Position numbers and translations under genes: made by a program
In this document: positions 31,322 to 46,277 of the stretch, one piece after another
How positions within the stretch are numbered: the first letter of the stretch is position 1
Layout of the letters: each line of letters starts with the position of its first letter
Assembly: GCA_040403495.1 (NCBI GenBank)
Contig: JBBAKM010000004.1
Coordinates: forward strand, 23,456 to 87,455
DNA: 64,000 nucleotides
Reading direction: 5' to 3'
Source: Bacteroidia bacterium
GTDB lineage: Bacteria > Bacteroidota > Bacteroidia > NS11-12g > UBA955
Notes under the pieces: model-generated
Seen by the model: only the letters and a program-made list of their open reading frames with translations
Database searches by the model: none
Told to the model about the DNA's origin: nothing

Positions 31322-33871
31322 ATGGCATTTAAGAACAAAAACACATTTAGAAATGCTGCTGATGACTTTCAGCCAGAGGAGTCTGCTAAAAAAAGTCGTG
31401 TCAAAGGAAACTATTTTTCGTGGTTGAAAGACGAGAAAACCGCCAGAGTAATAGGTGCCTTTTTTGTGCTCTTTTCATTGTTTTTGTTCATGTCTTTTAT
31501 TTCTCATATTGTCAATTTATGGGGATTCGAAACCGATCAAGATTTATTGCTCTCTAATAGTTGGCAGTGGTACAAAACCAATAATCCCAAAGGTGCAGTT
31601 AACATGATGGGTTATTTGGGGGCATGGTTTAGCCACTTGTTTATTCACAAATGGTTTGGAGTTGCCTCTTTTGTGTGGCTATTAACTTTTTTTACATTGG
31701 GTACCAAAATGTTGTTCAATTGGCAATTGTATCCATTGTTAAAAACATTAAGATATTCCTTTTTCATCGTTATTTGGGTGTCAATGTTAATGGGTTTCTT
31801 GTTCTATAAACACAGCTTGTTTATGGGTGGTGGATTTGGTTATTACGGCGTGTCATGGTTGAGCTCATTGTTCGGTAAGTTAGGCGTTGTTCTGTTCTTG
31901 TTGTTGTATGCTTTTATGTTTGCAACTATTGTTTACAATTTAGATTTTAAATCAATTAAAAGAAGTAGTTTAATAGATGACAAGGAATCAAACACACCGG
32001 GTGTGCCGTTTTCTGAACATGAATTGGAAGCAGAGTCTATCAAAAATGAATTTTTAAATCAAGATTCCCCATTTGATGTAACGGCTAGTGAAATAGAAGA
32101 AGAGGATGAAGGTATAGAACTAATAACGATTAATCAAACACCTGAAATAAAAGAAGAAATAGAACTCGAGGAAATGATGAATCCTCAAGTTGTTAGTTTT
32201 GATGTAAACAATACCCCTAAACCAATTTCGAAAACTCAACCGAATTTTGAACTTAAAATAGAAGCACCGCAAGAGGAAGAATTAGTAATTGTTCAACCTG
32301 TAAGCGAACCTGTATTGGATACATCAAATTCTGTCGCTCCTATTACAGCTTCTTTTGGTGATGATTCTCAGTACGACCCACGTTTAGATTTGGCGGGTTA
32401 TCAAATGCCAACCATAGATTTATTGCAGGACTATGAAGTGGCCAAAACAGAGATAGACAGAACAGAACTTGAGCACAGTAAAAACCTAATCATTGAAACA
32501 CTCAAAAACTACAACATTGGTATTTCTGAGATTAAGGCAAACATAGGTCCTACGGTAACTTTATACGAAATAATTCCTGCACCGGGGGTTAAAATTTCGA
32601 GAATTAAAAATCTGGAAGACGATATAGCGCTCAGTTTGGCAGCTTTGGGAATTCGTATTATTGCCCCTATTCCCGGAAAAGGAACCATAGGGATAGAAGT
32701 GCCGAACAAAAAGCCCGAAATGGTCCCTATGAAATCCATGGTGGCAAGTAAAAAGTTTCAAGAGTGTGCTTATGAGTTGCCTGTAATATTAGGAAAAACA
32801 ATATCTAATGAAATTTATATAGCAGATTTAGCCAAAATGCCGCATTTGTTGTGTGCTGGAGCCACAGGTCAAGGTAAGTCTGTGGGTCTTAATACCATTA
32901 TTTGTTCGCTGTTGTACAAAAAACATCCTTCCGAATTAAAATTTGTATTAATCGATCCTAAAAAAGTTGAGTTAACACTTTATAACAAAATTGAAAGACA
33001 TTTCTTAGCCAAATTGCCTGGAGATGGAGATGCTATTATTACTGATACCAAATTGGTGACCAATACATTGAATTCATTGTGTATGGAAATGGATGAGCGT
33101 TACGATTTGTTGAAATCGGCGGGTAAGCGTAATATCATTGAGTACAATACGAAGTTCAAAGAAAGAAAATTATTACCAACAGAAGGGCATCGTTTTTTGC
33201 CATACATAGTGGTAGTGATAGACGAGGTTGCCGATTTAATGATGACCGCAGGTAGGGAAGTAGAAACGCCAATTGCTAGGTTAGCTCAGTTGGCTAGGGC
33301 AGTAGGTATTCACGTTATTTTGGCAACACAAAGGCCATCAGTAAATATTATTACAGGTACTATCAAAGCGAATTTCCCTGCGCGATTAGCTTTTAGAGTC
33401 ACCTCCAAAATAGATTCTCGTACGATTTTAGACAGCAATGGTGCCGACCAACTGATAGGAAAGGGAGATATGTTGTTTAGTACAGGCAACGATTTATTGC
33501 GATTGCAATGTCCATTTGTTGACACCCCTGAGGTGGAACGTATTACAGAATTTATAGGAAATCAAAGAGGATATAGTAGTGCCATGATATTGCCTGAGTT
33601 TAGGGGCGATGAAGACGGTGGTGCAAGAGATGATTTCGATCCTAATGACCGTGATGCTTTGTTTGAAGAAGCAGCCAGATTAATAGTTCAAACCCAACAA
33701 GGCAGTACCTCATTAATTCAAAGAAAATTGAAATTGGGCTACAACAGGGCAGGTCGTTTGATTGATCAATTAGAACAAGCAGGCATAGTGGGTCATTTTG
33801 AAGGGGCCAAAGCCAGAAAGGTATTAATACCAGACGAAGCCAGCTTAGATCAGTTTTTGGATAATATGTAG
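31322..33871 (+). CDS. ftsK: DNA translocase FtsK/SpoIIIE.
   Basis: The product has an N-terminal TM domain, a low-complexity linker, a motor domain (HLLCAGATGQGKSVGLNTII Walker A; VVVIDEVADLMM) and a C-terminal gamma winged helix. Confidence 0.95.
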   Translation: MAFKNKNTFRNAADDFQPEESAKKSRVKGNYFSWLKDEKTARVIGAFFVLFSLFLFMSFISHIVNLWGFETDQDLLLSNSWQWYKTNNPKGAVNMMGYLGAWFSHLFIHKWFGVASFVWLLTFFTLGTKMLFNWQLYPLLKTLRYSFFIVIWVSMLMGFLFYKHSLFMGGGFGYYGVSWLSSLFGKLGVVLFLLLYAFMFATIVYNLDFKSIKRSSLIDDKESNTPGVPFSEHELEAESIKNEFLNQDSPFDVTASEIEEEDEGIELITINQTPEIKEEIELEEMMNPQVVSFDVNNTPKPISKTQPNFELKIEAPQEEELVIVQPVSEPVLDTSNSVAPITASFGDDSQYDPRLDLAGYQMPTIDLLQDYEVAKTEIDRTELEHSKNLIIETLKNYNIGISEIKANIGPTVTLYEIIPAPGVKISRIKNLEDDIALSLAALGIRIIAPIPGKGTIGIEVPNKKPEMVPMKSMVASKKFQECAYELPVILGKTISNEIYIADLAKMPHLLCAGATGQGKSVGLNTIICSLLYKKHPSELKFVLIDPKKVELTLYNKIERHFLAKLPGDGDAIITDTKLVTNTLNSLCMEMDERYDLLKSAGKRNIIEYNTKFKERKLLPTEGHRFLPYIVVVIDEVADLMMTAGREVETPIARLAQLARAVGIHVILATQRPSVNIITGTIKANFPARLAFRVTSKIDSRTILDSNGADQLIGKGDMLFSTGNDLLRLQCPFVDTPEVERITEFIGNQRGYSSAMILPEFRGDEDGGARDDFDPNDRDALFEEAARLIVQTQQGSTSLIQRKLKLGYNRAGRLIDQLEQAGIVGHFEGAKARKVLIPDEASLDQFLDNM

Positions 33872-33998
33872 AACCGAATTAGTATTTAGTTCTAAATGCG
33901 ATAGAGGTTATTAAAATATAATACTTTTGGTGTTAAAATGGTGGAGCGATTAGTTTAAAATATTTACTTGTATTTATTCGTAAATACATAATAGCATT

Positions 33999-34385
33999 TT
34001 ATGCCCATTCTTGTCTAATCTTATATTTCTTAATTATATTATCTTTAGTAATTAGGGTCAAGTTTTCTGTTAGTGCTTGAGAAACAATTAGTCTATCAAA
34101 TGGGTCGCTGTGATGACTTGGTAATTTTGAAAGAGTTAGTAAATGGTCATTCGAAATTTGTATTATCTCGATTTGGTTACGTTCGGTATATTCAAACAAT
34201 TCTTCTAAAGAAATATCTAATGTCAATTTCCCAATTTGATGTTTAATTGTAATTTCCCAGAAACTTGCTATACTCAAGAAACAATGTTCATTAATGTCTT
34301 TTATTTTGGTTTTAATGCTTTCAGGAAGTTGCTTGTCGCCAGCAACAAACCATAGGAAAGTATGCGTATCAAGAAGATATGCCAT
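33999..34385 (-). CDS. vapC: PIN-domain toxin (VapC family).
   Basis: The 128-aa product has MAYLLDTHTFLWF... with conserved acidic residues. Its start overlaps the upstream antitoxin stop. Confidence 0.8.
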   Translation of the reverse strand: MAYLLDTHTFLWFVAGDKQLPESIKTKIKDINEHCFLSIASFWEITIKHQIGKLTLDISLEELFEYTERNQIEIIQISNDHLLTLSKLPSHHSDPFDRLIVSQALTENLTLITKDNIIKKYKIRQEWA

Positions 34386-34588
34386 TAAATATAGTCTTTA
34401 AAAATATCTAATGATTCATCAAAATCTTTGGCAAGCTTAATTTTGCCTTTAGCATATCCAAATTCCCTGAACTTTATTTTGTTCTTTTTCTTATTTTTCA
34501 TTTTAAGAAACGCAACAAAGTCGGCAACTTCTTTTCGAAGTGAGATTGGTAATGACTCAATTTCTATTTTAAGCGATGGGTTGGTCAT
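34385..34588 (-). CDS. vapB: VapB-type antitoxin (DUF2281-like). The start is likely the internal Met MTNPSLKIEI.
   Basis: A small protein encoded immediately upstream of vapC and overlapping it. The ORF track's longer start adds a hydrophobic leader. Confidence 0.55.
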   Translation of the reverse strand: MTNPSLKIEIESLPISLRKEVADFVAFLKMKNKKKNKIKFREFGYAKGKIKLAKDFDESLDIFKDYI

Positions 34589-34754
34589 ACCACAAATATA
34601 CAAAAATAATTTTAAAGTAAATAAGTATTTCCAAAATAATATCATCAAAAACTTTAAGATTATGCTTCCGATATTTCCTGTGTTTGCTTTGTTTCAAATA
34701 ACATATTTGGAAGAATAATTTGTATTCAATTGAAAATACATTAATTTTGAAACT

Positions 34755-34982
34755 ATGAAAACTTTGACAGTAAATATACCCGACAATTTAGATTTGACAA
34801 ATCGGGAATTGCTCATGCTAGTTGCTTCAAAATTGTACGAACAAGGTAAATTATCTCTTGGACAAGCAGCTGATCTTGTTGGATTATCTAAGCGAACTTT
34901 TGCTGAGTTATTACATCAATACAATGTTTCTGTTTTCAATTTTCCGACATCAGATTTAATAAGTGATGTAAAGAATGCGTAA
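34755..34982 (+). CDS. UPF0175-family antitoxin.
   Basis: The 75-aa product has ...LMLVASKLYEQGKLSLGQAADLVGLSKRTFAELL..., typical of UPF0175. It overlaps the downstream DUF3368 gene by 8 nt. Confidence 0.75.
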   Translation: MKTLTVNIPDNLDLTNRELLMLVASKLYEQGKLSLGQAADLVGLSKRTFAELLHQYNVSVFNFPTSDLISDVKNA

Positions 34983-35430
34983 GACCATTATCTCAGACAC
35001 AAGTTGTTTAAATGTTTTGTCAAATATTGGTGAACTTGAATTGTTAAAAAAAGTATATGATCAAATTATAACAACCTCAGACATTGAAAATGAATTTGGA
35101 GAGGAATTGCCTGATTGGATAGTTGTTGAAAATGTAAAAGACCTATCCACTCAAAAAGTATTAGAACTTCAGATAGATAAGGGAGAATCTAGTGCCATTT
35201 CATTGGCCTTGGAGTTGCCAGACAGCACTTTAATTTTAGATGATTATAAAGCTAGAAAAATTGCTCAATAATTAGGTCTTAAAATTACAGGAACAATTGG
35301 AGTAATTGTAAAAGCTAAATTAAATGGGATTATCCCTTCAATAAAACCTTACATTGAGAAAATAAAAGAAACAAATTTTAGAGTTTCTGATGAAATAGAA
35401 ATTGAAGCTTTAAAACAGGCTGATGAGTAA
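34975..35430 (+). pseudogene. DUF3368-family (PIN-like) toxin gene interrupted by an in-frame TAA at 35269-35271.
   Basis: The N-terminal 98 codons end ...DDYKARKIAQ*. The same frame continues directly as LGLKITGTIGVIVKAKLNGIIPSIKPYIEKIKETNFRVSDEIEIEALKQADE*, the conserved DUF3368 C-terminus. That makes this a single nonsense change in a full-length toxin. Confidence 0.7.
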
Positions 35431-35570
35431 GATTTAAAAATGACAGCTAAGTAGTTTGGCTGTTCAAATATAGCTTTTTTTGGATTTTCAAGTGTCTTAT
35501 AATTACACTTAACATAATCTTATAAAAGGAATAAGATTGTATTTTAAAAATTACTTATTCTTGTAGTACA

Positions 35571-35831
35571 ATGAAAATTGATAAAACGGTTTTTGGTATG
35601 TATAAAAAAGTCGAAAAACCGAATGTCTTTAAATATTGGCAAACTAAAACGGTTAAAGAAAGACTTCTTGCAGTAGCCTATTTAAATAGTGTGGCATTTA
35701 ATTACGATATCAATAATCCACCTAAAGTTGATAGAACGGTATTTTCTATTGAAAAAAGAGAGAAAAGAATAATTAATGATTTAAAATGGCAAAACAATCT
35801 TCAGCAAGACCTCTTGATATCAATGATTTAG
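35571..35831 (+). CDS. Hypothetical small protein.
   Basis: The 86-aa ORF has no recognisable domain and lies inside the TA island. Confidence 0.3.
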   Translation: MKIDKTVFGMYKKVEKPNVFKYWQTKTVKERLLAVAYLNSVAFNYDINNPPKVDRTVFSIEKREKRIINDLKWQNNLQQDLLISMI

Positions 35832-35894
35832 AAAATTTGAATTAAAATTTTTAATTAAAATTACATATTTTATTAGCTCTTTTTTAAATGTTAG

Positions 35895-35992
35895 CATCAA
35901 GTTAACCCTCCAAAAGTTAAGCTTTTTGGAGAGTTGATTATCCAAAAAGACAGATATTCGGAGAGTTGACTCTCCAAAAGTAGGGAATTTTG
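35895..35992. repeat. Cluster of three related hairpins sharing a TCCAAAAG core.
   Basis: The hairpins are CTCCAAAAgttaagctTTTTGGAG, GGAGAGttgaCTCTCC and TCCAAAAgtagggaaTTTTGGA. They lie between two convergent genes and none has a U-tract. Confidence 0.4.
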
Positions 35993-36025
35993 GATATTTG
36001 TTTTATTTTAATATTGTAACTTGTA

Positions 36026-36373
36026 TTACTTTATTTTATTGATAAGCTTTTGATTTTGATCTCTCAAGTATTTATTTTCTTCTTTCAATAGCTTAATTTC
36101 GTTTTCTTGAATCATTAATTGATGGATATATCCATAATTGTAATTAACTGAGTTTTCTGAATTATTGAAATTGTTAGTTACGTTATTGCTGAGAAGTTCA
36201 TTAAAATCGATTTCATAAATTTTAGCAAATTTAATCAACTTAGAAATATCTGGTTTAATTTTGCCAGTTTCAATTTTACTGTAATCTGATTGTTCAATTC
36301 CAAGCTCTGATGCAATTTTTTGCTGATCCCAACCTTTTTCTAGTCTTAATTTTTTTAGATTTTTGTGTATCAT
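36026..36373 (-). CDS. XRE-family helix-turn-helix transcriptional regulator with a C-terminal coiled-coil.
   Basis: The product has LKKLRLEKGWDQQKIASELGIEQSDYSKIETGK (HTH_3). It is divergent from the first lipoprotein/OMP module. Confidence 0.8.
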   Translation of the reverse strand: MIHKNLKKLRLEKGWDQQKIASELGIEQSDYSKIETGKIKPDISKLIKFAKIYEIDFNELLSNNVTNNFNNSENSVNYNYGYIHQLMIQENEIKLLKEENKYLRDQNQKLINKIK

Positions 36374-36486
36374 TATTAATATATTTGTTTTATTTTTTTA
36401 GGAAATTATGAAGACTCAATAAATTTAATTATTTTCGATTCGTTATTTTAAATATTGATTCAAACACTAATGAAAAAAACTCGCAT
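36347..36486 (+). promoter_or_regulatory. Leader/promoter block, copy 1, shared by both lipoprotein-OMP modules.
   Basis: Bases 36391-36486 (tatatttgttttatttttttaggaaattatgaagactcaataaatttaattattttcgattcgttattttaaatattgattcaaacactaatgaaaaaaactcgc) are near-identical to 39936-40034. Confidence 0.6.
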
Positions 36487-37713
36487 TTGAAAGGTAATAA
36501 AATTTTATACATTTTAATTGTTTTTCTATCAATGTCATGTTACAAAGAATACAAGATAGAAAATAAAAGTTATTATGTAATGACTGGAGGGATAGTTAAT
36601 GGCTATCCCCCTTTTTTTATCCTATATAAATGTGATTTGTTTTCTACTACAAAACTTCCATATTCTGAATTTGATATAGTAGTTTCAGATGATTTCGGGA
36701 ATGTAGATTCAATGGTTAACGGATTGTTCAATAAAATAATTGGTATACCTGGACGTTCATATTTAGTTAAATGGAAGCTTAAGTTTGATGATACATGGAA
36801 TCAGTTTAGTAAGCAAATGCCGGCTTTTAATATAGATGCTTATAGTGGGTATGTTGAAAATTCAAAGTATAAAGTAAATTCTCCAGATAATTATGAATAT
36901 TTTTTGGCTTACAAATCAAACAATTCAGATTATTTCAATTTGTTTATAGATGGGTTATTCAACCCAATTGATATAGGTAGTGCATTTTTTAAATTAGATA
37001 AATCAAACAATACACTAAACATCTGGCCACCTGCAAATATAGAGATTTCAAATTCAGATAGAAAGGGTATAGAATTTACAAATTATAATTGTTACAAACC
37101 ATTTATTTGGGAAAAAAAGTATTTTAAGTTTGGAAATAAAACAGATGAATTTTTTTTAAAAGACATTTTGTCATTATACTCTGTAAATCAAAATGATATG
37201 CAGAATATAGTGAATGGGAGTTTTAATTTTGCTTATCAAGATCAGCCGTTGTTTATAGGCGAATCGGTAAAATATGATACAAAAAGGAATAATCAATATA
37301 CTATAACTTATTTCATTACAAGTTATAAGGATTTTAATTTTGATAAAGTTGTTGACACCTCTGGTTCAGTTGATTTTGAAATAAAACTAAATAATCAACC
37401 ACTAGATTTAACTAAATATGAAATTGGAAATGTTGGATTTAACATATTGGATAATGATAATTTTAAATTTAATAATATTTACAAATTCTTCGATTCAAAT
37501 AAAACAATCGGCAAATTGTTTAATAAAGATTTTGTAGATTATGTTTTTAATAAAGAAAGTAAAAATAATCAATGTGTTGTTAAGTCAAGTTATAATATTA
37601 GAGTAGTAGTTTATTTTTATGAAAGGTCAAATCCTAATATTAGAAAAACACATTTTGAATTATTAAATTATGATAAAAGCGTTAATAAAATCCAAATAAA
37701 TTTGATTGATTGA
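36487..37713 (+). CDS. Lipoprotein of unknown function (module 1, partner A).
   Basis: The 408-aa product has a lipobox FLSMSCYKEYK and is a ~25-30% identical paralog of the 40035-41210 product, with shared motifs KWKL, NIWPP and CYKPFIW. Its stop overlaps the downstream OMP start (ATGA). Confidence 0.6.
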   Translation: MKGNKILYILIVFLSMSCYKEYKIENKSYYVMTGGIVNGYPPFFILYKCDLFSTTKLPYSEFDIVVSDDFGNVDSMVNGLFNKIIGIPGRSYLVKWKLKFDDTWNQFSKQMPAFNIDAYSGYVENSKYKVNSPDNYEYFLAYKSNNSDYFNLFIDGLFNPIDIGSAFFKLDKSNNTLNIWPPANIEISNSDRKGIEFTNYNCYKPFIWEKKYFKFGNKTDEFFLKDILSLYSVNQNDMQNIVNGSFNFAYQDQPLFIGESVKYDTKRNNQYTITYFITSYKDFNFDKVVDTSGSVDFEIKLNNQPLDLTKYEIGNVGFNILDNDNFKFNNIYKFFDSNKTIGKLFNKDFVDYVFNKESKNNQCVVKSSYNIRVVVYFYERSNPNIRKTHFELLNYDKSVNKIQINLID

Positions 37714-39866
37714 TGTTTGATGTCAAATTTATATTATTTTTTGTTTTTCTGCTGGGTTGTCAGTTATTAAAAGGGCAAAGAGATAATATAGTAGTTGTGA
37801 AGGTTGTTAGTTTTAATAGTCAAGAACCAATATTTGGAATTAAACTAAATATTGAAGATAAAGATTATCAAACAAATTCAGATGGCATTGCAAATGTTTA
37901 TCTCAAAAATAGTATTGGGTTTTTGAAAATATACAAAGGGGATAGTTTAATTAAAACCAGTCGATTGTTTGTTTATAGAGATACATCTATAACAATCGTT
38001 ATTGATGAACAGTATTTTGAAATTGAAAAATTTAAGTTAGTTGGTAATAAGAGCTTTAAAGAATTAGATAACAAAATTTCAATACCTATGAATTTGATAA
38101 AGACTTCGGTTTTGCCTTTATCAACAAATGATCCAATTCATCTTTTAAAAATGCTTCCCGGTGTTTCTACAGCTCAAGAAATGAATTCAAATATAAATGT
38201 AAGAGGCGCATCTTCATATAATACATGTATTTATCTTGATAATGTTCCTGTTCCAAATTTATCTCATAGCTTTGGATTAATTAGTTTTTATGATAATAAC
38301 ATTATAAGGCATATTGATTATTTTAACAATCAAATTTCTTCAGCTTTTGGTACAAGGGGGTCAAGTTATTTCAAGTTTTTTTTAAAAGACCCATTACTTA
38401 ATAAAAATAAAGGTGAATTTATAATTAATCCATTTTTTGTGACTGGTAACGCCAATTTAAAAATGCTAGAAAATAAATTTGGTTTATTTGTTAATTATAG
38501 AAAATCGATATTGTCTGAGCAATATAATGCATCTTTTCCGCTTTTTTCAAATTTTCAAGATGTGTTAGTGAAATCAAAATTTAAAATTAAAGAGAACTCA
38601 CATTTGTCAATATTTTATATGGATAGTTATGACAAAAGTTATAACTCATATGGTTTTGGATTAAATGTAAAAGATAGTGTTTTATCAAGGTTTAAAACAT
38701 TTTCAGTTGTGTTTAATAAAATGAATAAAAGGGGCTTTTCTCAAACAATTAGTGGGTTTATAAAATCTCAATTTCTGTCTAGAACAAACAATAACTTCCT
38801 TGATGTCACATTGAATAATAAACTAGATGAATATAATGTATCGTATTTGAATAGCAAATCCTTAAATAAGTATTTTAAATTTCTTTTTGGATTTGAAAAT
38901 CAATTTCATAAAAGTGAAAATAAAATTGATTCTTTTAATTTTAATAATCAAAAAAACAACATAAGTTCTTTGTTTTTTGATATTGAATATAAAAAAAATA
39001 ATTACAAGGTGTTTGCTAATGTTAGACCAAATTACTTTGTTTCCCTCAATGAAATATATTTTGAAGCAAGATCTGGAATATTGAGAAAATTTAATAATCT
39101 GGGATTATATACAGAGGTAAATAGGTATGTAAACTCAATTCATTCGTTATCAAATAATCTTTTTGCAATTCCTGAAGATTATAGATTTTTACCTACAAAA
39201 GTGTTTAAGCCGCAAACAACAAATGAGATACTTATTGGTTTGAAATATTCAAACCTTAGAATAAACTTCTCATCAAATTTTTACTATAGGGTTTACGATA
39301 ATAGCTATGATTACAAAAAACTTTATTTATCTCCAATTAACAAACTTTCGAATATATCAAAAGTGGATTTTAATAGTTATGGTATAGAAAATTTTGTTAG
39401 CATTAAGATAAGTAAGTCAAATTCAATGAATTTGTCATATACATATTCAAAATCAACAATGTATAATGATTCAATTAATTTAGGAATAAAATATGTTTCA
39501 AATTTTGATAGGCCTCACATTTTAAATGCATTTTATATGTTTAAATATAAAAGAATTACATTTACAACTTCTTTTATATTTAAAAGTGGTAGGCCATATA
39601 CAGCGCCATTGTATGTTTTGAATAATATCCCCTTTTATTCAAACAGGAATGAGTTTAGGTTGCCTGTTTTTCATAAACTAGACATCGGAGTTCTCTATGA
39701 ATTTAAATCAAAGGTTTCTCAAACTCTACAGTTTCACCTGTATAATGTCTATTCACGTAATAATATTTATGCTGTTGTTTTTAATTCTTCTTTTTCTAAT
39801 CCTGAATTTAAGTATTTTTCAGCTTTCCCATTTCTACCATCCTTCTCTTACAGTATTAAATTTTAG
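37710..39866 (+). CDS. Outer-membrane beta-barrel protein with an N-terminal CarbopepD_reg-like domain and a TonB-dependent-receptor plug-like domain (SusC-like, short form; module 1, partner B).
   Basis: The product has a signal peptide and the plug-like region SVLPLSTNDPIHLLKMLPGVSTAQEMNSNINVRGASSYNTCIYLDNVPV. The C-terminus ...AFPFLPSFSYSIKF ends in Phe. The last ~50 nt are identical to the 41207-43366 gene. Confidence 0.7.
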   Translation: MMFDVKFILFFVFLLGCQLLKGQRDNIVVVKVVSFNSQEPIFGIKLNIEDKDYQTNSDGIANVYLKNSIGFLKIYKGDSLIKTSRLFVYRDTSITIVIDEQYFEIEKFKLVGNKSFKELDNKISIPMNLIKTSVLPLSTNDPIHLLKMLPGVSTAQEMNSNINVRGASSYNTCIYLDNVPVPNLSHSFGLISFYDNNIIRHIDYFNNQISSAFGTRGSSYFKFFLKDPLLNKNKGEFIINPFFVTGNANLKMLENKFGLFVNYRKSILSEQYNASFPLFSNFQDVLVKSKFKIKENSHLSIFYMDSYDKSYNSYGFGLNVKDSVLSRFKTFSVVFNKMNKRGFSQTISGFIKSQFLSRTNNNFLDVTLNNKLDEYNVSYLNSKSLNKYFKFLFGFENQFHKSENKIDSFNFNNQKNNISSLFFDIEYKKNNYKVFANVRPNYFVSLNEIYFEARSGILRKFNNLGLYTEVNRYVNSIHSLSNNLFAIPEDYRFLPTKVFKPQTTNEILIGLKYSNLRINFSSNFYYRVYDNSYDYKKLYLSPINKLSNISKVDFNSYGIENFVSIKISKSNSMNLSYTYSKSTMYNDSINLGIKYVSNFDRPHILNAFYMFKYKRITFTTSFIFKSGRPYTAPLYVLNNIPFYSNRNEFRLPVFHKLDIGVLYEFKSKVSQTLQFHLYNVYSRNNIYAVVFNSSFSNPEFKYFSAFPFLPSFSYSIKF

Positions 39867-40034
39867 ATTTTTGTGTATCATTATTAAAAAATAGAATATA
39901 TTCATCAAAAATTGAATTTTTTGATGAATATATTTGTTTTATTTTTTTGGGAAATTATGAAGACTCAATAAATTTAATTATTTTCGATTCGTTATTTTAA
40001 ATATTGATTCAAACACTAATAAAAAAACTCGCCT
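39862..40034 (+). promoter_or_regulatory. Leader/promoter block, copy 2, with a palindrome-containing insertion.
   Basis: This copy matches copy 1 but inserts aaaatagaatatattcatcaaaaattgaattttttgatgaatatatt, which contains the perfect inverted repeat TTCATCAAAAAttgaaTTTTTTGATGAA. It also retains the first ~7 codons of the XRE gene in reverse complement (gtgtatcat). Confidence 0.6.
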
Positions 40035-41210
40035 ATGAAATTTAAAATCATTCTTTTTTTTATCGTTTTAACTCAAATAAGTTGTTACAAAGATTACGAC
40101 TTAATAAAGCAGGAATATTATTTTTTAAGGGGTTTGTTCGTCAATGGACAATCCCCTTCCTTTCAATTGTATTTTCAAAACACACAAGGCGATTATAAAG
40201 TAAATTATACTGACTATCAACTAGAGGTCATTAATGAAAATAATTCTGTTTTTAAAATGAATTCAAATGGTAACTTTTCTTTTTTATCTATAAAGCCTAA
40301 TTCTAAATACAAAGTGAGATGGAAATTAAATAGCGAGAAAGAATGGCACGAGCTTACCAAAGAGTCTATTAACTATGAAACAACGTTAAATGACAAATCA
40401 TTTGTTAAAGTCGAAAATGAATTGTTTGTTAATAGAGATAGAAATGATTCTTTTGTTTATTTTTTATACAATCCATATGATAGAAAGACTTTTGAAGAAC
40501 AGTTTTTAAAATCTTTTTTGATTGAATATCCCGATGCATTTCTTGAATTAAATCAAACAGACAATGCATTGATTTTATGGCCACCTTCCAATAAATATTA
40601 TTTAGATAGATTTAAAAATTCAACTAACTTTTGCTTCAAACCATTCACTTGGAAAATGTTAAGTGGGCCTGTATATAGTAATTTTCAACTTTATAGTATG
40701 TCTAAATCGGATTTTCAATTTTATTATAATTTACATAAAAATGATGTAGGAAAAAATACGCCTTTGGCGGTTGGTGAAGGCATATTGTGGGATTACAGTA
40801 AAGACAATGTAAAAGCCAAAATAGTCAATATTAACAATTATAATAATATTAAAATCTTTGATTATGTTAACAGAGATGAAAGGTTGTATGTTGATTTTTT
40901 AATAAATGGCAACTCAATAGATACATTAAGTCATAGAATAATTAGCGTTAATATGAGATTTGAAAAATCCGAAAATTCTTTTCCAGTTATGGGATGGCAA
41001 AATAAAACTGTTTATGCTGGTACTAAAGAATATTTTGCGCATCACTTCAACGAGAATTTCAATAAACCATGTGGTTATTTTAACAATATTTATAAATTGA
41101 GGTTTTTTGTATATCTTCATGATTTAAAAACAAACATAAGAACAAGTATTGAAATGCCAACATTCAACTACACAAAAGGCGAAAGTGTAGTTTTAGATAT
41201 TAAACCATGA
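40035..41210 (+). CDS. Lipoprotein of unknown function (module 2, partner A).
   Basis: The 391-aa product has a lipobox LTQISCYKDYD and is paralogous to the 36487-37713 product. Its stop overlaps the downstream OMP start (ATGA). Confidence 0.6.
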   Translation: MKFKIILFFIVLTQISCYKDYDLIKQEYYFLRGLFVNGQSPSFQLYFQNTQGDYKVNYTDYQLEVINENNSVFKMNSNGNFSFLSIKPNSKYKVRWKLNSEKEWHELTKESINYETTLNDKSFVKVENELFVNRDRNDSFVYFLYNPYDRKTFEEQFLKSFLIEYPDAFLELNQTDNALILWPPSNKYYLDRFKNSTNFCFKPFTWKMLSGPVYSNFQLYSMSKSDFQFYYNLHKNDVGKNTPLAVGEGILWDYSKDNVKAKIVNINNYNNIKIFDYVNRDERLYVDFLINGNSIDTLSHRIISVNMRFEKSENSFPVMGWQNKTVYAGTKEYFAHHFNENFNKPCGYFNNIYKLRFFVYLHDLKTNIRTSIEMPTFNYTKGESVVLDIKP

Positions 41211-43366
41211 AAAAAATATTTGTATTTTCTCTTTTATTTCTGTGTTTAGTATTAAAAAGCCAAACATTACATCAAATAAATTTTAAGTTTTTAGACCAAG
41301 CAAACAATCAACCGATTTCTAATTTACTAGTCAAATGCCAAAATACTGCAGCGTATAGTAATTCAGATGGTTTTGTTTCTGTGTTCTTACATTCAGATAC
41401 CTGTACGTTTCGTTTTTATGAATCAGATATATATTTACAAGAGTACAAATTAAAAGCATATAATGACACTTTTATAGTATTGAAAATAGAACGCATTTAT
41501 GAAATAAGTAAGTTTAAGCTAAGGGTAAATCACCAGCCCATAACTGCTAAAAATAACAGAATTTCTATAGGTCAAAATACACTTCAGTCTATTTCATTGC
41601 CACTAAGTACCAACGACCCAATTCATTTATTAAAAACATTGCCCGGGGTTAATACCAGTCAAGAAATGAATGCTAATTTAAATATTAGAGGTGGAAGTGC
41701 TTACAATACAGTCTTTTATTTAGATAATATTCCTGTGCCTAATTTAACTCATAGTTTTGGTTTATACAGTTTTTTTGATTTGAATACTATCAGACAAATT
41801 GATTATTTCAATAATAATGTAAGTAGTGAGTATGGCTCTAGGGGTTCAAGTTATATAAAATTTTATCTTAAAGACCCAATTGCTAATAAATCAACATCAG
41901 AGCTGAATATTAATCCTTTTTTTGTTAGTGGTAATGTTAATTTGAAGTTAAAAAAAGAAAAATTGGGTGTTTTTGTTAATTACAGAAAATCAATTTTCAA
42001 CACTGAATATAATGTTCTTTTCCCTCTTTTTTCGGAGTTTTCAGATTTATTGATTAAAACAAAATATAACTTTAACAAAAGGTCGTCATTAAGTTTAATA
42101 TACACCGATAATCAAGACAGGGTTACTGATTTTAATGCAACGGGAATTAACTCAAGAGATAGCTTACAATGGCAGTTTAAAGCCTTTTCATCACAATTTG
42201 ATTTAATCTCTAAAACTGGCGTAAAACATGAAGCAATTTTTTTCATTAAGAATCAAGTATTGTCAAGGCAATCTTTGAATAATCAGTTTAATTACAATAA
42301 CGAATTTAATGAAATGAACTTTAAATATTCGTTAAAGAAAAGTTTTAGCCAGAATTTTAAATCATCATTAGGCTTAGAACATCAAATTCATCAAAATAAT
42401 AATTCAATAGCTTTTAACAATAAAACCATCAATAATTTGAATGTTTTATCACTTTATACGGATAACTCATACCAATTTAAAAACTTGATTTTTAATGCTA
42501 ATTTAAGGTTGAGTAATTTTATAGAATTAAAGAAAACCTATTTGGAAAAAAGGTTAAGTGTAAATTATAAGCTCAATAAGTCGAATTTTATTGCGGAATA
42601 TAATTCTTTTGTTAATTCTACACATAGTTTGGTCAACAATGTTTTTCCCGTGCCTGATGATTTTAAGTTTTTGGCGAATAAAGATTTTTTGCCTCAGGTA
42701 ACTAATGAGTGGTTGATTGGCTATAATGTTCAACTAAAAAAATCAAATCTACAATTAAATGCTTATCATAGAAATTATCTAAATAGCTATGATTACAGAA
42801 GATTGAATATTGATAATTATGCCTCATTTAGCAACGTTTTTAAGATGAATCATATCAGCTATGGGGTTGAAGCTTTGTCAAATATAAACATTAACGAAAA
42901 GCATAGTTTTGTTTTGTCCTATACTTATTCAAAATCTACGATGCAAAATGATTCAGTCAATTTAGGTTTATTATATCCAACTAGTTACGACAGGCCACAT
43001 AATTTTAATTTATTGTATAGTTTTAAATATAAAAGATTTACGTTTACTAGTACTTTTACTTGGCAAAGTGGTAGGGTTGCTACGGTACCTTTATTTGTAG
43101 CTTACGCTAATGCTACCCCAATTTATTCTCTAAGAAATGAGTATCGTTTAAAACCTTTTCATAAAATGGATATTGGTTTTCAATACAGTTTTAGAAATAA
43201 AGGTAAAATTAAACAGTTTTTAAATGTTAATTTGTACAATGTATATTTTCGTCAAAATACTTATGCTGTTGTATGGGAAAGTAACAACAATACTAGATCT
43301 GCTGAACTAAAATATCTAACAGCTTTCCCATTTCTACCATCCTTCTCTTACAGTATTAAATTTTAG
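41207..43366 (+). CDS. Outer-membrane CarbopepD/plug/beta-barrel protein (module 2, partner B).
   Basis: The 719-aa product is ~65% identical to the module-1 protein in the plug region (ISLPLSTNDPIHLLKTLPGVNTSQEMNANLNIRGGSAYNTVFYLDNIPV). It has the identical C-terminal TAFPFLPSFSYSIKF. Confidence 0.7.
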   Translation: MKKIFVFSLLFLCLVLKSQTLHQINFKFLDQANNQPISNLLVKCQNTAAYSNSDGFVSVFLHSDTCTFRFYESDIYLQEYKLKAYNDTFIVLKIERIYEISKFKLRVNHQPITAKNNRISIGQNTLQSISLPLSTNDPIHLLKTLPGVNTSQEMNANLNIRGGSAYNTVFYLDNIPVPNLTHSFGLYSFFDLNTIRQIDYFNNNVSSEYGSRGSSYIKFYLKDPIANKSTSELNINPFFVSGNVNLKLKKEKLGVFVNYRKSIFNTEYNVLFPLFSEFSDLLIKTKYNFNKRSSLSLIYTDNQDRVTDFNATGINSRDSLQWQFKAFSSQFDLISKTGVKHEAIFFIKNQVLSRQSLNNQFNYNNEFNEMNFKYSLKKSFSQNFKSSLGLEHQIHQNNNSIAFNNKTINNLNVLSLYTDNSYQFKNLIFNANLRLSNFIELKKTYLEKRLSVNYKLNKSNFIAEYNSFVNSTHSLVNNVFPVPDDFKFLANKDFLPQVTNEWLIGYNVQLKKSNLQLNAYHRNYLNSYDYRRLNIDNYASFSNVFKMNHISYGVEALSNININEKHSFVLSYTYSKSTMQNDSVNLGLLYPTSYDRPHNFNLLYSFKYKRFTFTSTFTWQSGRVATVPLFVAYANATPIYSLRNEYRLKPFHKMDIGFQYSFRNKGKIKQFLNVNLYNVYFRQNTYAVVWESNNNTRSAELKYLTAFPFLPSFSYSIKF

Positions 43367-43399
43367 ATTTATTCATTGTAGGTAGGGGCTTTAAGTTAT

Positions 43400-43720
43400 A
43401 TGTTTAAACAAGCCAAGTTGCTAACACAAAAAATATTGCAAATGAAAAAAAATAGTATCTTTGAGTATTATTTTTTTCAAATGAAAGCTGAGCACAATGT
43501 AAATAGTCAAAAATTAGAACTTATTCAATGGCTTTCTACTATAGAAGATCAATCTACCATTGAAAAGCTGATTGAATTTAAAAATAAAGAAAATAAAGAT
43601 TGGTGGGATTCACTCTCTAAAAAAGAAGAACAATCAATAAATAAAGGAATTTTAGATGCAGAAAAAGGAAATCTAAAATCCCATTCAATTGTAAGAAACA
43701 GGTATGAAAAGTGGTTATAA
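43400..43720 (+). CDS. Putative antitoxin-like small protein (addiction-module-component-like C-terminus).
   Basis: The 106-aa product has ...DWWDSLSKKEEQSINKGILDAEKGNLKSHSIVRNRYEKWL. It sits immediately upstream of a decayed ParE/RelE-like ORF. The true start may be the internal Met MKAEHN. Confidence 0.35.
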   Translation: MFKQAKLLTQKILQMKKNSIFEYYFFQMKAEHNVNSQKLELIQWLSTIEDQSTIEKLIEFKNKENKDWWDSLSKKEEQSINKGILDAEKGNLKSHSIVRNRYEKWL

Positions 43721-43730
43721 CGTATTCTAG

Positions 43731-44002
43731 ACTGAAAATGCCCTAATAGAATTAGAAGAAACTATTAAATACTTAGAAACCAATTGGACAAATATTGAAA
43801 TCCAAAATTTATTTGAAAATTTAGATAGAACGATAACCCTACTTTCTAAAAATCCATTAATTTTCCCATTAAGTCATAGAAAAAAGGTTAGAAGAGTGGT
43901 TTTCTCTCTTTAAATACTTTGTATTACAGAGTTGTAGATGGTAGGGTAGAAATATTATCGTTTTTTTCAAATAGGCAAAACCCTGATAAAATCAACATTT
44001 AG
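43731..44002 (+). pseudogene. RelE/ParE-family toxin remnant with no start codon and a -1 frameshift near 43905.
   Basis: Frame 1 reads ENALIELEETIKYLETNWTNIEIQNLFENLDRTITLLSKNPLIFPLSHRKKVRRVVFSL*. The shifted frame reads LYYRVVDGRVEILSFFSNRQNPDKINI*. The second half matches the conserved RelE/ParE C-terminus (Y-R-V-x-D-x-V-E-I-L-x-I-x-H-x-R-Q-x-P). Confidence 0.5.
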
Positions 44003-44022
44003 TAATAGTAATAGCTTGTTAC

Positions 44023-44100
44023 TCTTTTTCTAATCCTGAATTTAGGCACTTTACAGCTTCCACATTTCTACCATCCTTCTCTTACAGTATTAAATTTTAG
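44023..44100 (+). pseudogene. Orphan 3'-terminal fragment of a third lipoprotein-partner OMP paralog.
   Basis: The sequence ctttttctaatcctgaatttaggcactttacagcttccacatttctaccatccttctcttacagtattaaattttag aligns to 39788-39866 and 43289-43366. It translates in frame to SFSNPEFRHFTASTFLPSFSYSIKF*. Confidence 0.65.
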
Positions 44101-44223
44101 ATTTAATTGTCTTTTTGTCCTGCTATTCACAGTAATAGTGTTATTTAATAGAAGTGTTCCTTTAAACAAACTCATTTTGGAACACTATTTGGATAGCTTG
44201 AATAATAAATAATAGTATTAAAT

Positions 44224-44907
44224 TTGCGCCCAATGAAAATTAAAGTCCTTTTTTCTTTTTTGATTCTCGTGTTAATGTCCTTTGTAGCTACACCACCCAA
44301 AGTGGAAAAAGACAAAGATGCCAACAAGTTATTGAAAGATATTTCTAAAAAATACAAAGCTTATACCTCTCTTAAAGCCGATTTTACAATGTTGAACGAA
44401 CCTGCCGATGGTAAAAAAAGTACCACCGAAAAGGGCTCTTTGTGGTCGAAAGGGAATAACTTTAAACTGAATTTTGGAGGTCAACAGATTTTTTGTAACG
44501 GTAAGTTTATATGGACTTATACCGCCGAAACCAATGAGTGTGTTAAGGATAATTACAATCCCAATAGCTCAAAAGGAATTAACCCTACCAAATTATTTAC
44601 TATTTGGGAAAAAGGGTTTTTATACATCAGTGAAGGAACATACAAAAAAGGCACTTCTATTATTTCTAAAATAAAACTAACCCCAACCGACAAATCTGTT
44701 CCTTATTTCTTAATGAACTTAGAGGTTGACAATACCCTTAAAACATTGCAAAGTATGAAAGTATCATACAAAGCAGGCAACAAACAAACCTACACTATCA
44801 CTCAACAAAAAGCCAATGAGGCTATTTTGGACAAGGAGTTTGTGTTTGATGCAAGCAAATACAGCGGTGTAGAAATCATCGATTTAACCAGTAAGTCAAA
44901 AAAATAA
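44224..44907 (+). CDS. lolA: LolA-like outer-membrane lipoprotein carrier protein. The start is probably the Met at 44233 (MKIKVLF).
   Basis: The product has a signal peptide and ...LKADFTMLNEPADGKKSTTEKGSLWSKGNNFKLNFGGQQIFCNGKFIWTY..., typical of LolA/LppX-fold proteins. lolA normally neighbours ftsK. Confidence 0.75.
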   Translation: MRPMKIKVLFSFLILVLMSFVATPPKVEKDKDANKLLKDISKKYKAYTSLKADFTMLNEPADGKKSTTEKGSLWSKGNNFKLNFGGQQIFCNGKFIWTYTAETNECVKDNYNPNSSKGINPTKLFTIWEKGFLYISEGTYKKGTSIISKIKLTPTDKSVPYFLMNLEVDNTLKTLQSMKVSYKAGNKQTYTITQQKANEAILDKEFVFDASKYSGVEIIDLTSKSKK

Positions 44908-44969
44908 ACAAGTCTTTTTAAATGATTTACGTCATTTATTGAAATTGTTTTTTTTTATAATTTTGCAAA

Positions 44970-45989
44970 GTGTTGTTACATAATAGAATTAGTAATAAAG
45001 AGTTAAAGGAAAAAATTAAGTTTAGCAACGAAGCTAGAACTACTATTTCTTTTTATAAATACCACCATCTGCAAAACCCCAAGGCTTTCAGAGATGAATT
45101 GTACTTGGCTTGGAATCAATTAGGTGTAATGGGTAGAATCTATGTGGCAGACGAAGGAATTAATGCCCAATTGTCTGTGCCTTCAGAAAATTTTGAGGCT
45201 TTTAAGTCCCATTTATACAGCTATGATTTTTTGAATGGTGTGCGCTTAAATACTGCTGTTGAAGATGATGGTAAATCATTTTTTAAATTGGCTATCAAAG
45301 TCAGAAAGAAAATTGTTGCTGATGGAATAGAAGATCCTAATTTTGATGTCACTAAAATAGGTACTCACTTAAAAGCGGAAGATTTTAATGCACTCATCGA
45401 TAATCCAGATACCATAGTTGTGGATATGCGCAACCACTACGAAAGTGAAATTGGTCATTTTGAAAAAGCTATTTTGCCAGATGTGCTTAGTTTTAGAGAG
45501 CAATTGCCCAAAGTGGCCGAAATGTTGGAAAATCAAAAGGATAAACCAGTTTTGATGTATTGTACCGGAGGTATCCGTTGCGAAAAAGCCAGTGCTTATA
45601 TGCTTTACAGAGGGTTTAAGGAAGTGTATCAGTTGGAAGGCGGTATTATTAAATATGCCAACGATATCAAAGAAAAAGGATTGCCCAATAAATTTCATGG
45701 TAAAAACTTTGTATTTGATGAACGTTTAGGCGAGCACATTTCAACCGAAATAATATCCAAGTGTCACCAATGTGGCAATCCGAGTGATACCCATACCAAT
45801 TGTGCCAATGTAGCATGTAATTTACTGTTTATTCAATGTTCAGCTTGTAAAGAAAAGTACAGCAACTGCTGTGACGAAGAATGCCAACACATTGCTTCAC
45901 TACCCGAAGAGGAGCAAAAGGTACTAAGAAAAGGCACCAACAAAGGTCGTTTGGTTTTTAACAAAGGCAAGAAGTTGAAAACGCAATAG
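44970..45989 (+). CDS. trhO: Rhodanese-domain tRNA uridine(34) hydroxylase (TrhO/YceA, UPF0176).
   Basis: The product has the rhodanese active-site region YCTGGIRCEKASAYM and a Cys-rich C-terminal tail, with full-length YceA-like organisation. Confidence 0.8.
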   Translation: MLLHNRISNKELKEKIKFSNEARTTISFYKYHHLQNPKAFRDELYLAWNQLGVMGRIYVADEGINAQLSVPSENFEAFKSHLYSYDFLNGVRLNTAVEDDGKSFFKLAIKVRKKIVADGIEDPNFDVTKIGTHLKAEDFNALIDNPDTIVVDMRNHYESEIGHFEKAILPDVLSFREQLPKVAEMLENQKDKPVLMYCTGGIRCEKASAYMLYRGFKEVYQLEGGIIKYANDIKEKGLPNKFHGKNFVFDERLGEHISTEIISKCHQCGNPSDTHTNCANVACNLLFIQCSACKEKYSNCCDEECQHIASLPEEEQKVLRKGTNKGRLVFNKGKKLKTQ

Positions 45990-46277
45990 ATAAAGTGTTA
46001 TTTCTTCTTCTTCTTTGTATATTTTACACCCTAGTAAACTCTATTAATGTGGAAAATAGATAGGTGTATTTATAGGCTGACTTATCGCTATTTTATTACG
46101 AGATAATTCAGTTATATGGTTCTTAACATATTAGGAAAATGTTACCTTGTGTTTTAATGTTAAATTTACTTAATGTGCTATAGGGTAATTTACATGTCAA
46201 AGATTTAGTGTTTTAGTCATATAAATGGTAGCAAATTTTTTATTATCTTTGTAAAATAGAAGTTTTTAAATATAGTT

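Follow-up and report, generated by a model that had tools for sequence, protein, structure and literature searches.

The stretch of DNA examined here (the window: 64,000 nucleotides (nt) of contig JBBAKM010000004.1, from a Bacteroidia bacterium) contains, between the genes for FtsK and LolA, two consecutive units which each encode a lipoprotein (lipoB) and an outer-membrane protein (OMP). All four genes lie on the plus strand (36487-39866 and 40035-43366). The OMP is a small TonB-dependent transporter (TBDT), and comparison with loci of related genomes, designated below by L-numbers, indicated that the two units are old and distinct alleles of a single variable site which were brought together. 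The features of the locus are the following, from left to right.

31322-33871, plus strand: FtsK, which is conserved and borders the variable site on the left (open reading frame (ORF) list and synteny).
36026-36373, minus strand: XRE-family helix-turn-helix (HTH) regulator of 115 amino acids (aa), divergent from unit 1 (Pfam HTH_19, E 8.5e-14; HTH_3, E 1e-12).
36374-36486, plus strand: leader 1, with the -7 box TATATTTG at 36380-36387, then the scar of a further, deleted lipoprotein gene, lipoA.
36487-37713, plus strand: lipoprotein 1 (lipoB type 1), an ORF of 408 aa with a TTG start; lipobox ...SMSC, then YKEY.
37713-39866, plus strand: OMP1 (TBDT type 1, P0007), 717 aa from the ATG, with an alternative TTG start at 37710; Pfam Plug, E 8.8e-6.
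39789-39870, plus strand: 3'-end repeat E1, which covers the final 75 coding nt of OMP1 with its stop codon and ATTT.
39861-39887, minus strand: truncated 5' end of the XRE gene, 7 codons, 100% identical to 36353-36379.
39886-39943, no strand: inverted repeat with 26-nt arms, 85% complementary, overlapping the -7 box of unit 2.
39924-40034, plus strand: leader 2, with the -7 box TATATTTG at 39929-39936 and the same lipoA scar as leader 1.
40035-41210, plus strand: lipoprotein 2 (lipoB type 2), an ORF of 391 aa; lipobox ...QISC, then YKDY.
41207-43366, plus strand: OMP2 (TBDT type 2), 719 aa; Pfam Plug, E 2.4e-8.
43320-43370, plus strand: 3'-end repeat E2, 51 nt, 100% identical to E1.
43442-43720, plus strand: RelB/ParD-like antitoxin gene, between unit 2 and the relic E3 (weak NCBIfam RelB_ParD match).
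43704-44002, plus strand: ParE-like toxin pseudogene, interrupted at codon 9 by a stop and near 43900 by a frameshift.
44023-44104, plus strand: relic E3, an 82-nt non-coding remnant of a type-1 OMP 3' end, directly upstream of LolA.
44224-44907, plus strand: LolA, which is conserved and borders the variable site on the right (Pfam LolA and synteny).

When the two units were compared, their bodies proved to be widely diverged. The lipoproteins were 28% identical by BLASTP and 26% identical in a global alignment. The OMPs shared 47% of their amino acids overall, with 27% in the N-domain, 67% in the plug, 45% in the barrel and 100% over the last 14 aa, and both terminated in ...AFPFLPSFSYSIKF. 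At the nucleotide level, the two OMP genes were 59% identical, and their ends (39820-39870 and 43320-43370) matched at 100% over 51 nt, comprising 44 coding nt, the stop codon and 4 further nt; the next-longest exact run in the OMP gene was 16 nt. The leaders (36375-36478 and 39924-40027) were 97% identical, or 98% over 107 nt, and included a 37-nt exact stretch. A first-pass annotation of this DNA, made from the sequence alone, had pointed to diverged bodies with near-identical ends, and this pattern was found to be real and beyond chance. It had also placed the first codons of the XRE gene in the junction between the units, where indeed 7 codons are repeated exactly. It had overlooked that the OMP 3' end exists in one more copy, the relic E3, which is 93% identical to the end of unit 1, as well as the inverted repeat before unit 2 and the origin of the leader from a gene remnant. 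Finally, it had described an ATGA overlap between lipoprotein and OMP genes in both units; this applies to unit 2, but in unit 1 the genes are joined by TGATG and overlap by 1 nt.

The assignment of the OMP as a TBDT was established by several lines of evidence. The Pfam Plug model (PF07715) matched OMP1 with 26.6 bits and OMP2 with 34.9 bits, above the gathering cut-off of 23.9, and the plug motifs were kept in the alignment with distant TBDTs. An AlphaFold2 (AF2) model of OMP2, obtained from a 32-sequence alignment (predicted local distance difference test, pLDDT, 82; predicted template modelling score, pTM, 0.80), displayed an N-terminal beta-sandwich (21-94), which a low-confidence linker connects to a plug and a large barrel. 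When this model was submitted to Foldseek against the PDB, PirA, BtuB, YddB, Cir, FecA and FepA were retrieved with a probability of 1.00 and E values of 7e-23 to 1e-18; the template modelling (TM) scores to BtuB, PirA and FecA were 0.6-0.78, and 0.76-0.79 when normalised to BtuB. In this predicted structure, the barrel matched those of solved 22-stranded TBDTs, with about 24 segments delimited by DSSP. Furthermore, both OMPs ended in ...SFSYSIKF, a C-terminal aromatic beta-signal in which F719 is nearly invariant in the family, and the peptide FP(F/I)LPSFSYSIKF was common to the whole OMP family. Across the family, a strand motif also occupies the position of the TonB box, as LKPVTVTSKR does in P0005, with a degenerate sequence in the window copies. 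The Pfam TonB_dep_Rec and CarboxypepD_reg models matched neither of the window OMPs, and a PDB sequence search with OMP2 (E<=1) found nothing.

Among 5.8 billion proteins, the close family of the OMP formed eight clusters of 42-94% identity. It was present in 4 GTDB species representatives (one of them a partial match), all of them uncultured Bacteroidia/Bacteroidota metagenome-assembled genomes, and a metagenome scan added at least one further OMP allele type, L092/L093, among the matches listed. The nearest relatives outside the family, at 21-26% identity over the full length (E 1e-25 to 1e-42), were receptors with CarboxypepD_reg and Plug domains found across Bacteroidota, and in 59 of their 63 loci the gene immediately downstream encoded a DUF4249 lipoprotein. 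The window OMPs belong to a tight group of their own, with 42-50% internal identity versus 21-26% to the DUF4249-linked TBDTs.

The lipoproteins were more difficult to place. Neither matched an entry in Pfam, NCBIfam, PADLOC or PHROG, and none was found in the PDB for lipoprotein 2 (E<=10). The first-pass annotation had stated that neither partner could be named; this was borne out for the lipoprotein (Pfam and NCBIfam), but not for the OMP, which is recognised by Pfam Plug (E 2e-8 and 9e-6). An exhaustive search with a hidden Markov model (HMM) among 1.84 billion representatives retrieved 22 lipoB relatives, word-indexed searches giving 3-5. This number is far lower than the widespread DUF4249 family would yield, the single matches being unchecked for DUF4249. 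When the lipoB family was aligned by hhalign with the DUF4249 neighbours of the related TBDTs, the two were in register over the N-terminal ~100 aa (probability 95%, E 1e-8). As the signal peptide and lipobox contribute to this score, the kinship of lipoB with DUF4249 was treated as a lead and not as membership.

All lipoB members carry an invariant S-C-x-K behind a hydrophobic N-terminus. In Bacteroidetes, the surface-export signal of lipoproteins was described as C-X-K-(D/E)2, and KD alone was insufficient in those experiments (PMC5080379). The corresponding region reads C-Y-K-E-Y-K in lipoprotein 1 and C-Y-K-D-Y-D in lipoprotein 2, so that the Lys at +3 and the acidic residue at +4 are kept and +5 is Tyr. 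The AF2 model of lipoprotein 2, which was confident only at 28-110 and 281-391, was predicted to be beta-rich. Lipoprotein 1 was 96% identical (aa) to the lipoB of L090 and 82% to that of L089; for lipoprotein 2, the orthologues showed 99, 85, 69 and 60% aa identity. The lipoprotein-first order pointed out in the first-pass annotation was real and was kept in every close family member, namely the two window units, L001, L002, L006, L009, L010, L089, L090, L092 and L093. By analogy with known pairs, the lipoprotein most likely sits on the TBDT's outer face as a substrate-capturing lid, and lipoB would accordingly be exposed at the cell surface. In L093, which carries a fourth allele type, the lipoB frame (8742-9965) seems interrupted, with tblastn similarity from 8742 and an ORF from 9072; it may be a pseudogene or reflect a sequencing error.

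In order to place the two units in context, the ftsK-lolA site was compared with its counterparts. The related genomes had a common synteny (UvrD-like helicase, a protein with a type IX secretion system tail, FtsK ... LolA, rhodanese) with one unit each. A type-2 unit stood alone in L002, L006, L007, L008 and L009, at 88-91.5% nt identity to window unit 2 and behind an AAA_14/DUF4143 gene; in L010 the order was AAA_14, XRE, lipoA (459 aa), lipoB2, OMP2. L090 and L091 possessed the type-1 unit only, in the order XRE, lipoA (438 aa), lipoB1, OMP1 and then directly LolA. Over 36476-39870, the window was 97.8% identical in nt to L090, and OMP1 98% identical in aa. A further type, in L001/L011, was located beside the dcw cluster together with an XRE-like gene and lipoA. 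The L001/L011 and L092/L093 types were ~45% (OMP) and ~29% (lipoB) identical to the other types.

Each unit of the window thus has, alone at this site in another genome, an orthologue far closer than its window neighbour, which argues that the units are distinct alleles of one locus rather than the outcome of a duplication in place. The first-pass annotation had proposed a tandem duplication followed by divergence, and this is contradicted by the orthologues which occupy this site singly and are closer in sequence (97.8% and 91% in nt, versus 59% between the window units). The survey of copy number in related genomes, which it had suggested, revealed one unit against the two of the window, unit 1 being absent from the conspecific contigs L172, L173 and L179. 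In its simple form, the duplication would have occurred long ago in this genome, the ends staying identical through purifying selection on the C-terminal strand and the promoter. The conservation of FP(F/I)LPSFSYSIKF across the family and that of the leader in L002, L006 and L009 are in line with it. However, besides the orthologues just mentioned and the conspecific strain without unit 1, the synonymous positions of the last 51 nt differ in the orthologues and are identical within the window, and we consider this history highly improbable.

The leaders were then examined by alignment with the XRE-lipoA intergenic regions and the lipoA ends of L090 and L010, upon which three parts could be recognised. 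The first corresponds to the XRE-lipoA intergenic region, including a conserved Bacteroidetes-type -7 box, TATATTTG. The second is a degenerate remnant of the lipoA start, ATGAAGACTCAATAA, and the third, AAACTCGC, represents the final ~12 nt of lipoA and overlaps the start of lipoB. This alignment identifies the leader as the scar left when lipoA, a lipoprotein gene lying upstream, was deleted. The leaders had previously been regarded as dedicated module boundaries; they consist instead of this scar and its promoter region. The scar also precedes the type-2 unit in L002, L006 and L009. Since it stands before type 1 in the window although L090 retains lipoA, the scar was copied between the units.

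LipoA itself, where it is present, is a Cys-rich lipoprotein of 434-459 aa encoded between XRE and lipoB (L090 8650-9966, L010 5457-6836, L001 4150-5454), with no Pfam, PADLOC or PHROG match. A structured leader or riboswitch was rejected: Rfam (E<=1) gave no match over 33800-44400, and the leader RNA folded worse than its shuffles (z +1.67). A sigma-70 promoter scan found 63 sites versus 62 expected and was uninformative in this AT-rich DNA.

The region 39886-39943, which in the window precedes unit 2 only, forms a palindrome with a DNA fold of -16.4 kcal/mol (z -6.4). A homologous region is present in L090 and L010, but leader 1 and L172 have lost the left arm. This palindrome is a candidate operator for the XRE regulator. 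The XRE gene is 100% identical in L172 and 80% identical in nt in L090 and L010. As the first-pass annotation had advised, its association with the module was checked, and it recurs: the gene adjoins the module in L090, L010, L172, L173 and L179, and an XRE-like HTH gene does so in L001. Only generic HTH matches were obtained for XRE in the PADLOC and PHROG searches. In several genomes, the neighbour of the type-2 unit is, in place of XRE or in addition to it, an AAA_14/DUF4143 (nSTAND-like) ATPase gene (L002/L006/L009, upstream of the leader; L010 3592-4791), and such a gene also flanks the L001 module (L001 2103-3242).

At the other extremity of the units, E1, E2 and E3 all share CTA, AGTATT and TAGATTT. 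Over the 51-nt end, 4 of 51 positions are different in L090, the type-1 orthologue, and 5 of 51 in L009/L002, the type-2 orthologues. The substitutions are thus common to the three ends of the window and absent from the orthologues of either unit, which points to intragenomic gene conversion over a short tract. On this comparison, the identical 3' ends arose by gene conversion among three copies of a conserved sequence coding for the C-terminal strand, and the earlier suggestion that recombination or gene conversion lay behind the identical flanks is upheld, as neither chance nor purifying selection alone would account for them. The OMP1/XRE' junction (XRE' being the truncated XRE end) falls at a 10-nt microhomology, TTTTAGATTT, found both in the XRE 5' end and in the OMP end, and the A which follows TAG in the 3' ends is the XRE-derived base at this junction. 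Window 44023-46007 (relic and LolA) is collinear with L090 13258-15242 (OMP1 end and LolA) at 93.7%, and the relic is also present in L172. The relic E3 shows that a type-1 OMP formerly abutted LolA here, as it does in L090.

Comparison with conspecific strains gave direct access to the gain and loss of units. The contigs L172, L173 and L179 were 99% identical to the window over 39924-46007, with an XRE gene 100% identical, and had the order XRE, leader, lipoB2, OMP2, intact RelB/ParE, relic, LolA. They lacked exactly the 3549 bp which separate the two window leaders, and their leader was the leader-1 variant fused to lipoB2. Unit 1 is therefore subject to a presence/absence polymorphism among conspecific strains. 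It follows that a single crossover between the leader copies interconverts the tandem and the single form, through loss of the segment or through integration of a 3549-bp circle. The slightly more parsimonious direction would be a deletion in a tandem ancestor, as L172 also is without the palindrome arm.

These data raise the question whether the tandem could be an artefact in which the alleles of two co-occurring strains were stitched together by the assembler. The units are alleles of one site elsewhere, the shared repeats (37 nt exact in the leader, 51 nt at the 3' end) would allow an assembler to switch, conspecific contigs with a single unit exist (L172, L173, L179), and the junction was recovered on one contig. 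Against this, the OMP1/XRE' junction shares only 10 nt (TTTTAGATTT), which is too short for a switch in a k-mer graph. In addition, the junction carries a palindrome which is absent beside the intact XRE gene, and is thus not a copy of the other path. Substitutions specific to the window are common to the three 3' ends, among them the A behind TAG, which agrees with the XRE-derived sequence. The short-read contigs of SRR10607571, which match the window at 100%, end exactly within the leader and within the 3' repeat, as would be expected of true repeats, and the single-unit strain L172 assembles straight through. A false tandem is hence very unlikely, and with it the possibility, raised in the first-pass annotation, that the identical ends are an assembly artefact. 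Exact-sequence look-ups of OMP1 (P0007) and lipoprotein 1 returned no record.

Substitution rates, estimated by a crude Nei-Gojobori method, were compared between the units and their flanks. Between the window and L090, the synonymous rate (dS) was 0.074 for lipoB1 and 0.072 for OMP1, to be compared with 0.63 for FtsK and 0.43 for LolA. For OMP2, dS values of 0.2-0.3 were obtained against L006, L009 and L002, with flanks at 0.7-0.9; lipoB2 gave 0.2-0.3 against L006 and L009, and 0.745 against L002. Within the type-2 unit, the plug-coding part (41415-41800) was 99-100% identical in nt (dS 0.06-0.09). The C-terminal third of lipoB2 (40815-41190) was the most variable among orthologues, with 52-76% nt identity in a sliding comparison and dS of 0.8-1.2. 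This discordance in dS and nt identity shows that the module is a mosaic which moves between lineages by recombination, and lateral transfer of the units by homologous recombination is indicated by these values. For whole genes, the OMPs had a ratio of non-synonymous to synonymous rates (dN/dS) of 0.10-0.15 and the lipoproteins one of 0.19-0.29 (overall range 0.04-0.36); values of 0.10-0.29 correspond to purifying selection, and the genes are thus taken to be functional. Of the cassette-like diversification evoked in the first-pass annotation, the exchangeable cassettes were confirmed (dS 0.07 versus 0.63 for FtsK; L172 without unit 1), but the diversification of a surface component was not, the loops not being hypervariable and dN/dS remaining below 1.

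The nature of the force acting on this diversity leads to another reading, in which the main role of the module is not nutrient uptake but that of a surface receptor pair diversified by phages, bacteriocins or kin recognition, and its conserved boundaries, with the toxin-antitoxin genes, make the site a variable surface/defence island. TBDTs are well-known receptors of phages and colicins, and complexes of Cir and BtuB are among the Foldseek matches; this general knowledge speaks for the reading. So do the alleles at 26-30% and 45-50% aa identity at one site with conserved flanks, the recent lateral exchange and mosaicism together with an old and very divergent lipoprotein C-terminal domain, the toxin-antitoxin modules and the AAA_14/DUF4143 ATPase at the same site, and the low GC content of the units (25-27%, versus 32.7% for the window). 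However, none of the four structural proteins had a PADLOC or PHROG match, dN/dS was below 1 throughout and the OMP loops were not hypervariable. Use as a phage receptor is moreover compatible with transport, so that it would explain the diversity and not provide a different mechanism. We regard a primary receptor role as possible, though unlikely.

Considered as a whole, the locus is best explained as an uptake module, composed of a TBDT and a lid, whose alleles were stacked, whose leaders are scars and whose ends were converted; we assign to this reading a probability of roughly 0.6. The OMP, with its N-terminal beta-sandwich, plug and barrel, would function as a TonB-energised uptake channel, and the translationally coupled upstream lipoprotein would act as an extracellular lid or binder on the outer face of the transporter. 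Transcription would probably start just after the -7 box of the leader, and would probably be repressed by the adjacent XRE protein at the palindrome which overlaps this box. Alleles are carried between lineages by homologous recombination, and relatives have one or the other at the locus. The tandem, with its period of 3549 bp, can arise or disappear when the two leader copies cross over; the leaders are copies of one lipoA-deletion scar, and the 3' ends were homogenised by gene conversion. The selective reason for the diversity of the alleles may lie with phages, with bacteriocins or with the substrate.

Several observations weigh against the uptake module so described. Firstly, the window copies have a degenerate TonB box: at the position where distant relatives carry L-x-E-V-V-V-T-A and family members LNTVTVTSKK or LKPVTVTSKR (P0005), the window OMPs read ISKFKLRV and IEKFKLVG, in which alternating hydrophobic residues are kept, and the AF2 confidence at 98-108 is low. 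Secondly, the long connecting loops of the OMP are more conserved than its strands, in a topology which is not fixed without model coordinates. Concerning the lipoprotein, Pfam DUF4249 (PF14054) gave 0 matches at E<=0.1 with 21 lipoB family members, hhalign without the signal peptide and lipobox reached a probability of 39% only (E 3e-4), and the export signal, with a single acidic residue (+4), is a partial match to C-X-K-(D/E)2. No enzyme or inner-membrane transporter was linked to the module in any allele examined, hence there is no clue to the substrate. Finally, no second independent contig was found for the tandem junction 39871-39923, and dN/dS exceeded 1 in no segment by the crude estimate, so that diversifying selection is not demonstrated.

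A bolder scheme would make lipoB-OMP a distinct and unclassified class of transporter and lid. The leader/lipoA end and the 51-nt end would serve as anchors of exchange throughout the population, and receptor types and, separately, the lipoB C-terminal domain would be swapped or stacked by lineages of freshwater Bacteroidia, with phages or bacteriocins exerting a negative frequency-dependent pressure; the tandem would be an intermediate and the 3549-bp unit excisable as a circle. This combination is speculative, and we hold it to be improbable in its entirety.

The surroundings of the module deserve a brief description. The G+C content of the units (36487-43366) is 25-27% within a window at 32.7%, and that of FtsK and of LolA with the rhodanese gene is 35-37.5%. 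The conspecific contig L172 has an intact RelB/ParE pair; in the window, the antitoxin gene is retained and the toxin gene is broken. Two more toxin-antitoxin pairs are present in the island: PIN with DUF2281 (33999-34648, minus strand) and UPF0175 with DUF3368 (34755-35271). The latter pair is 97-99% identical in nt to L090, versus 87% for the neighbouring FtsK, and thus appears to have been moved laterally too. Just downstream of the XRE gene, 35900-36003 contains three tandem units of 32 nt, each forming a CTCCAAAAG...CTTTTTGGAG hairpin, with resembling copies in L002 (9688-9770) and L010 (3537-3643 and 4864-4934); they look like a small repeat element of the repetitive extragenic palindromic (REP) or terminator kind. 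Upstream of the variable site, an 86-aa ORF without family match (35571-35831) is kept in L010 (1955-2152), and its DNA sequence is conserved in L002/L009 also.

These results bear on several questions. TBDTs with lipoprotein partners other than SusD are abundant in Bacteroidota and almost uncharacterised, and the locus adds to them a rare and divergent branch with a reversed order of the partners. It also offers a clean natural example of how a surface module may evolve, by way of old alleles at one site, lateral exchange, stacking and loss of tandems via short repeats, and patching by conversion. Should the diversity be driven by phages or bacteriocins, the locus would serve as a marker of strain-level predator-prey dynamics in lake metagenomes; should substrates be behind it, strain-specific nutrient niches would be indicated. 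In addition, it calls for caution when only the sequence is read, as diverged bodies with identical ends here result from the stacking of alleles and the scar of a gene deletion, and not from a dedicated mechanism of diversification.

Lastly, the module was compared with known systems. BT2173, a DUF4249 protein, was proposed as the lid of the non-SusC TBDT BT2172 on the basis of AlphaFold-Multimer contacts and cofitness, in a study by Price, Deutschbauer and Arkin (2023) which also discusses HmuY/HmuR (bioRxiv 10.1101/2023.03.17.533168). Pairs of the BT2172/BT2173 type contain the nearest relatives of the window OMPs outside the family and follow the same plan, with a carboxypeptidase-regulatory-like sandwich, a plug and a barrel. 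They also have an adjacent lipoprotein gene of similar size on the same strand, and the N-terminal sandwich of the window lipoprotein aligns with DUF4249. However, the window lipoprotein gene is upstream and overlaps the OMP start, whereas the DUF4249 gene is downstream in 59 of 63 loci. The window OMP is 50-200 aa shorter, and the Pfam models DUF4249, CarboxypepD_reg and TonB_dep_Rec are unmatched. The similarity of the lipoproteins is limited to the first ~100 aa and is weak without the signal peptide. Furthermore, the ancestral operon of the window module includes a second lipoprotein, lipoA, and the XRE regulator.

In gene order, the window module more closely recalls TbpB-TbpA, LbpB-LbpA and HpuA-HpuB of Neisseria/Haemophilus and HmuY-HmuR of Porphyromonas/Bacteroides, in which the lipoprotein gene comes first and is co-transcribed with that of the TBDT. 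In these systems, the lipoprotein is far more variable than the transporter, the variation is spread by recombination between strains, and the substrates (transferrin, lactoferrin, haem) are host-derived. The order of the genes, the variability of the lipoprotein and the spread by recombination are common to the window module. On the other hand, the window proteins have no PDB match (E<=1 for the OMP, E<=10 for the lipoprotein), the phylum is different for Tbp, Lbp and Hpu, and the window organism is an uncultured freshwater Bacteroidia bacterium, unlike organisms which draw on host-derived substrates.

With SusC/SusD (RagA/RagB), the window module shares the concept of a TBDT with a surface lipoprotein as its lid, and an N-terminal carboxypeptidase-regulatory-like domain. 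It differs by the opposite gene order, by an OMP ~300 aa shorter and by a lipoprotein predicted to be beta-rich, where SusD is helical. One may still ask whether it is a polysaccharide utilisation pair of this type with an unusual gene order, given the Bacteroidota host, the N-domain of the TBDT and the adjacent lipoprotein. Yet neither OMP nor lipoprotein matched NCBIfam SusC/RagA (TIGR04056) or SusD at E<=1, no SusD-like Pfam match was obtained, the fold of SusD is alpha-helical and resembles tetratricopeptide repeats, and glycoside hydrolases were not found nearby. Membership of SusC/SusD was rejected by these family searches and is scarcely credible; the SusD/RagB family, which the first-pass annotation had named as a possible home for the lipoprotein, is not matched in NCBIfam or Pfam.

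As to the organisation of the site, O-antigen and capsule loci contain divergent alleles between conserved flanks, which are exchanged by homologous recombination. The ftsK-lolA site resembles them, as its alleles differ far beyond its flanks, the dS of the cassette is discordant with that of the flanks and the orthologues are mosaic. It differs in that the window cassette has only two to four genes, which encode proteins and not glycan synthesis, and in that two alleles are kept in tandem. The first-pass annotation had presented the module as a candidate undescribed outer-membrane system. As the OMP is a Plug-bearing TBDT whose nearest outside relatives pair with DUF4249 lipoproteins, and such pairs have been proposed before, the module is a divergent and order-inverted form of the known theme of a TBDT with its lipoprotein, rather than a new kind of system.

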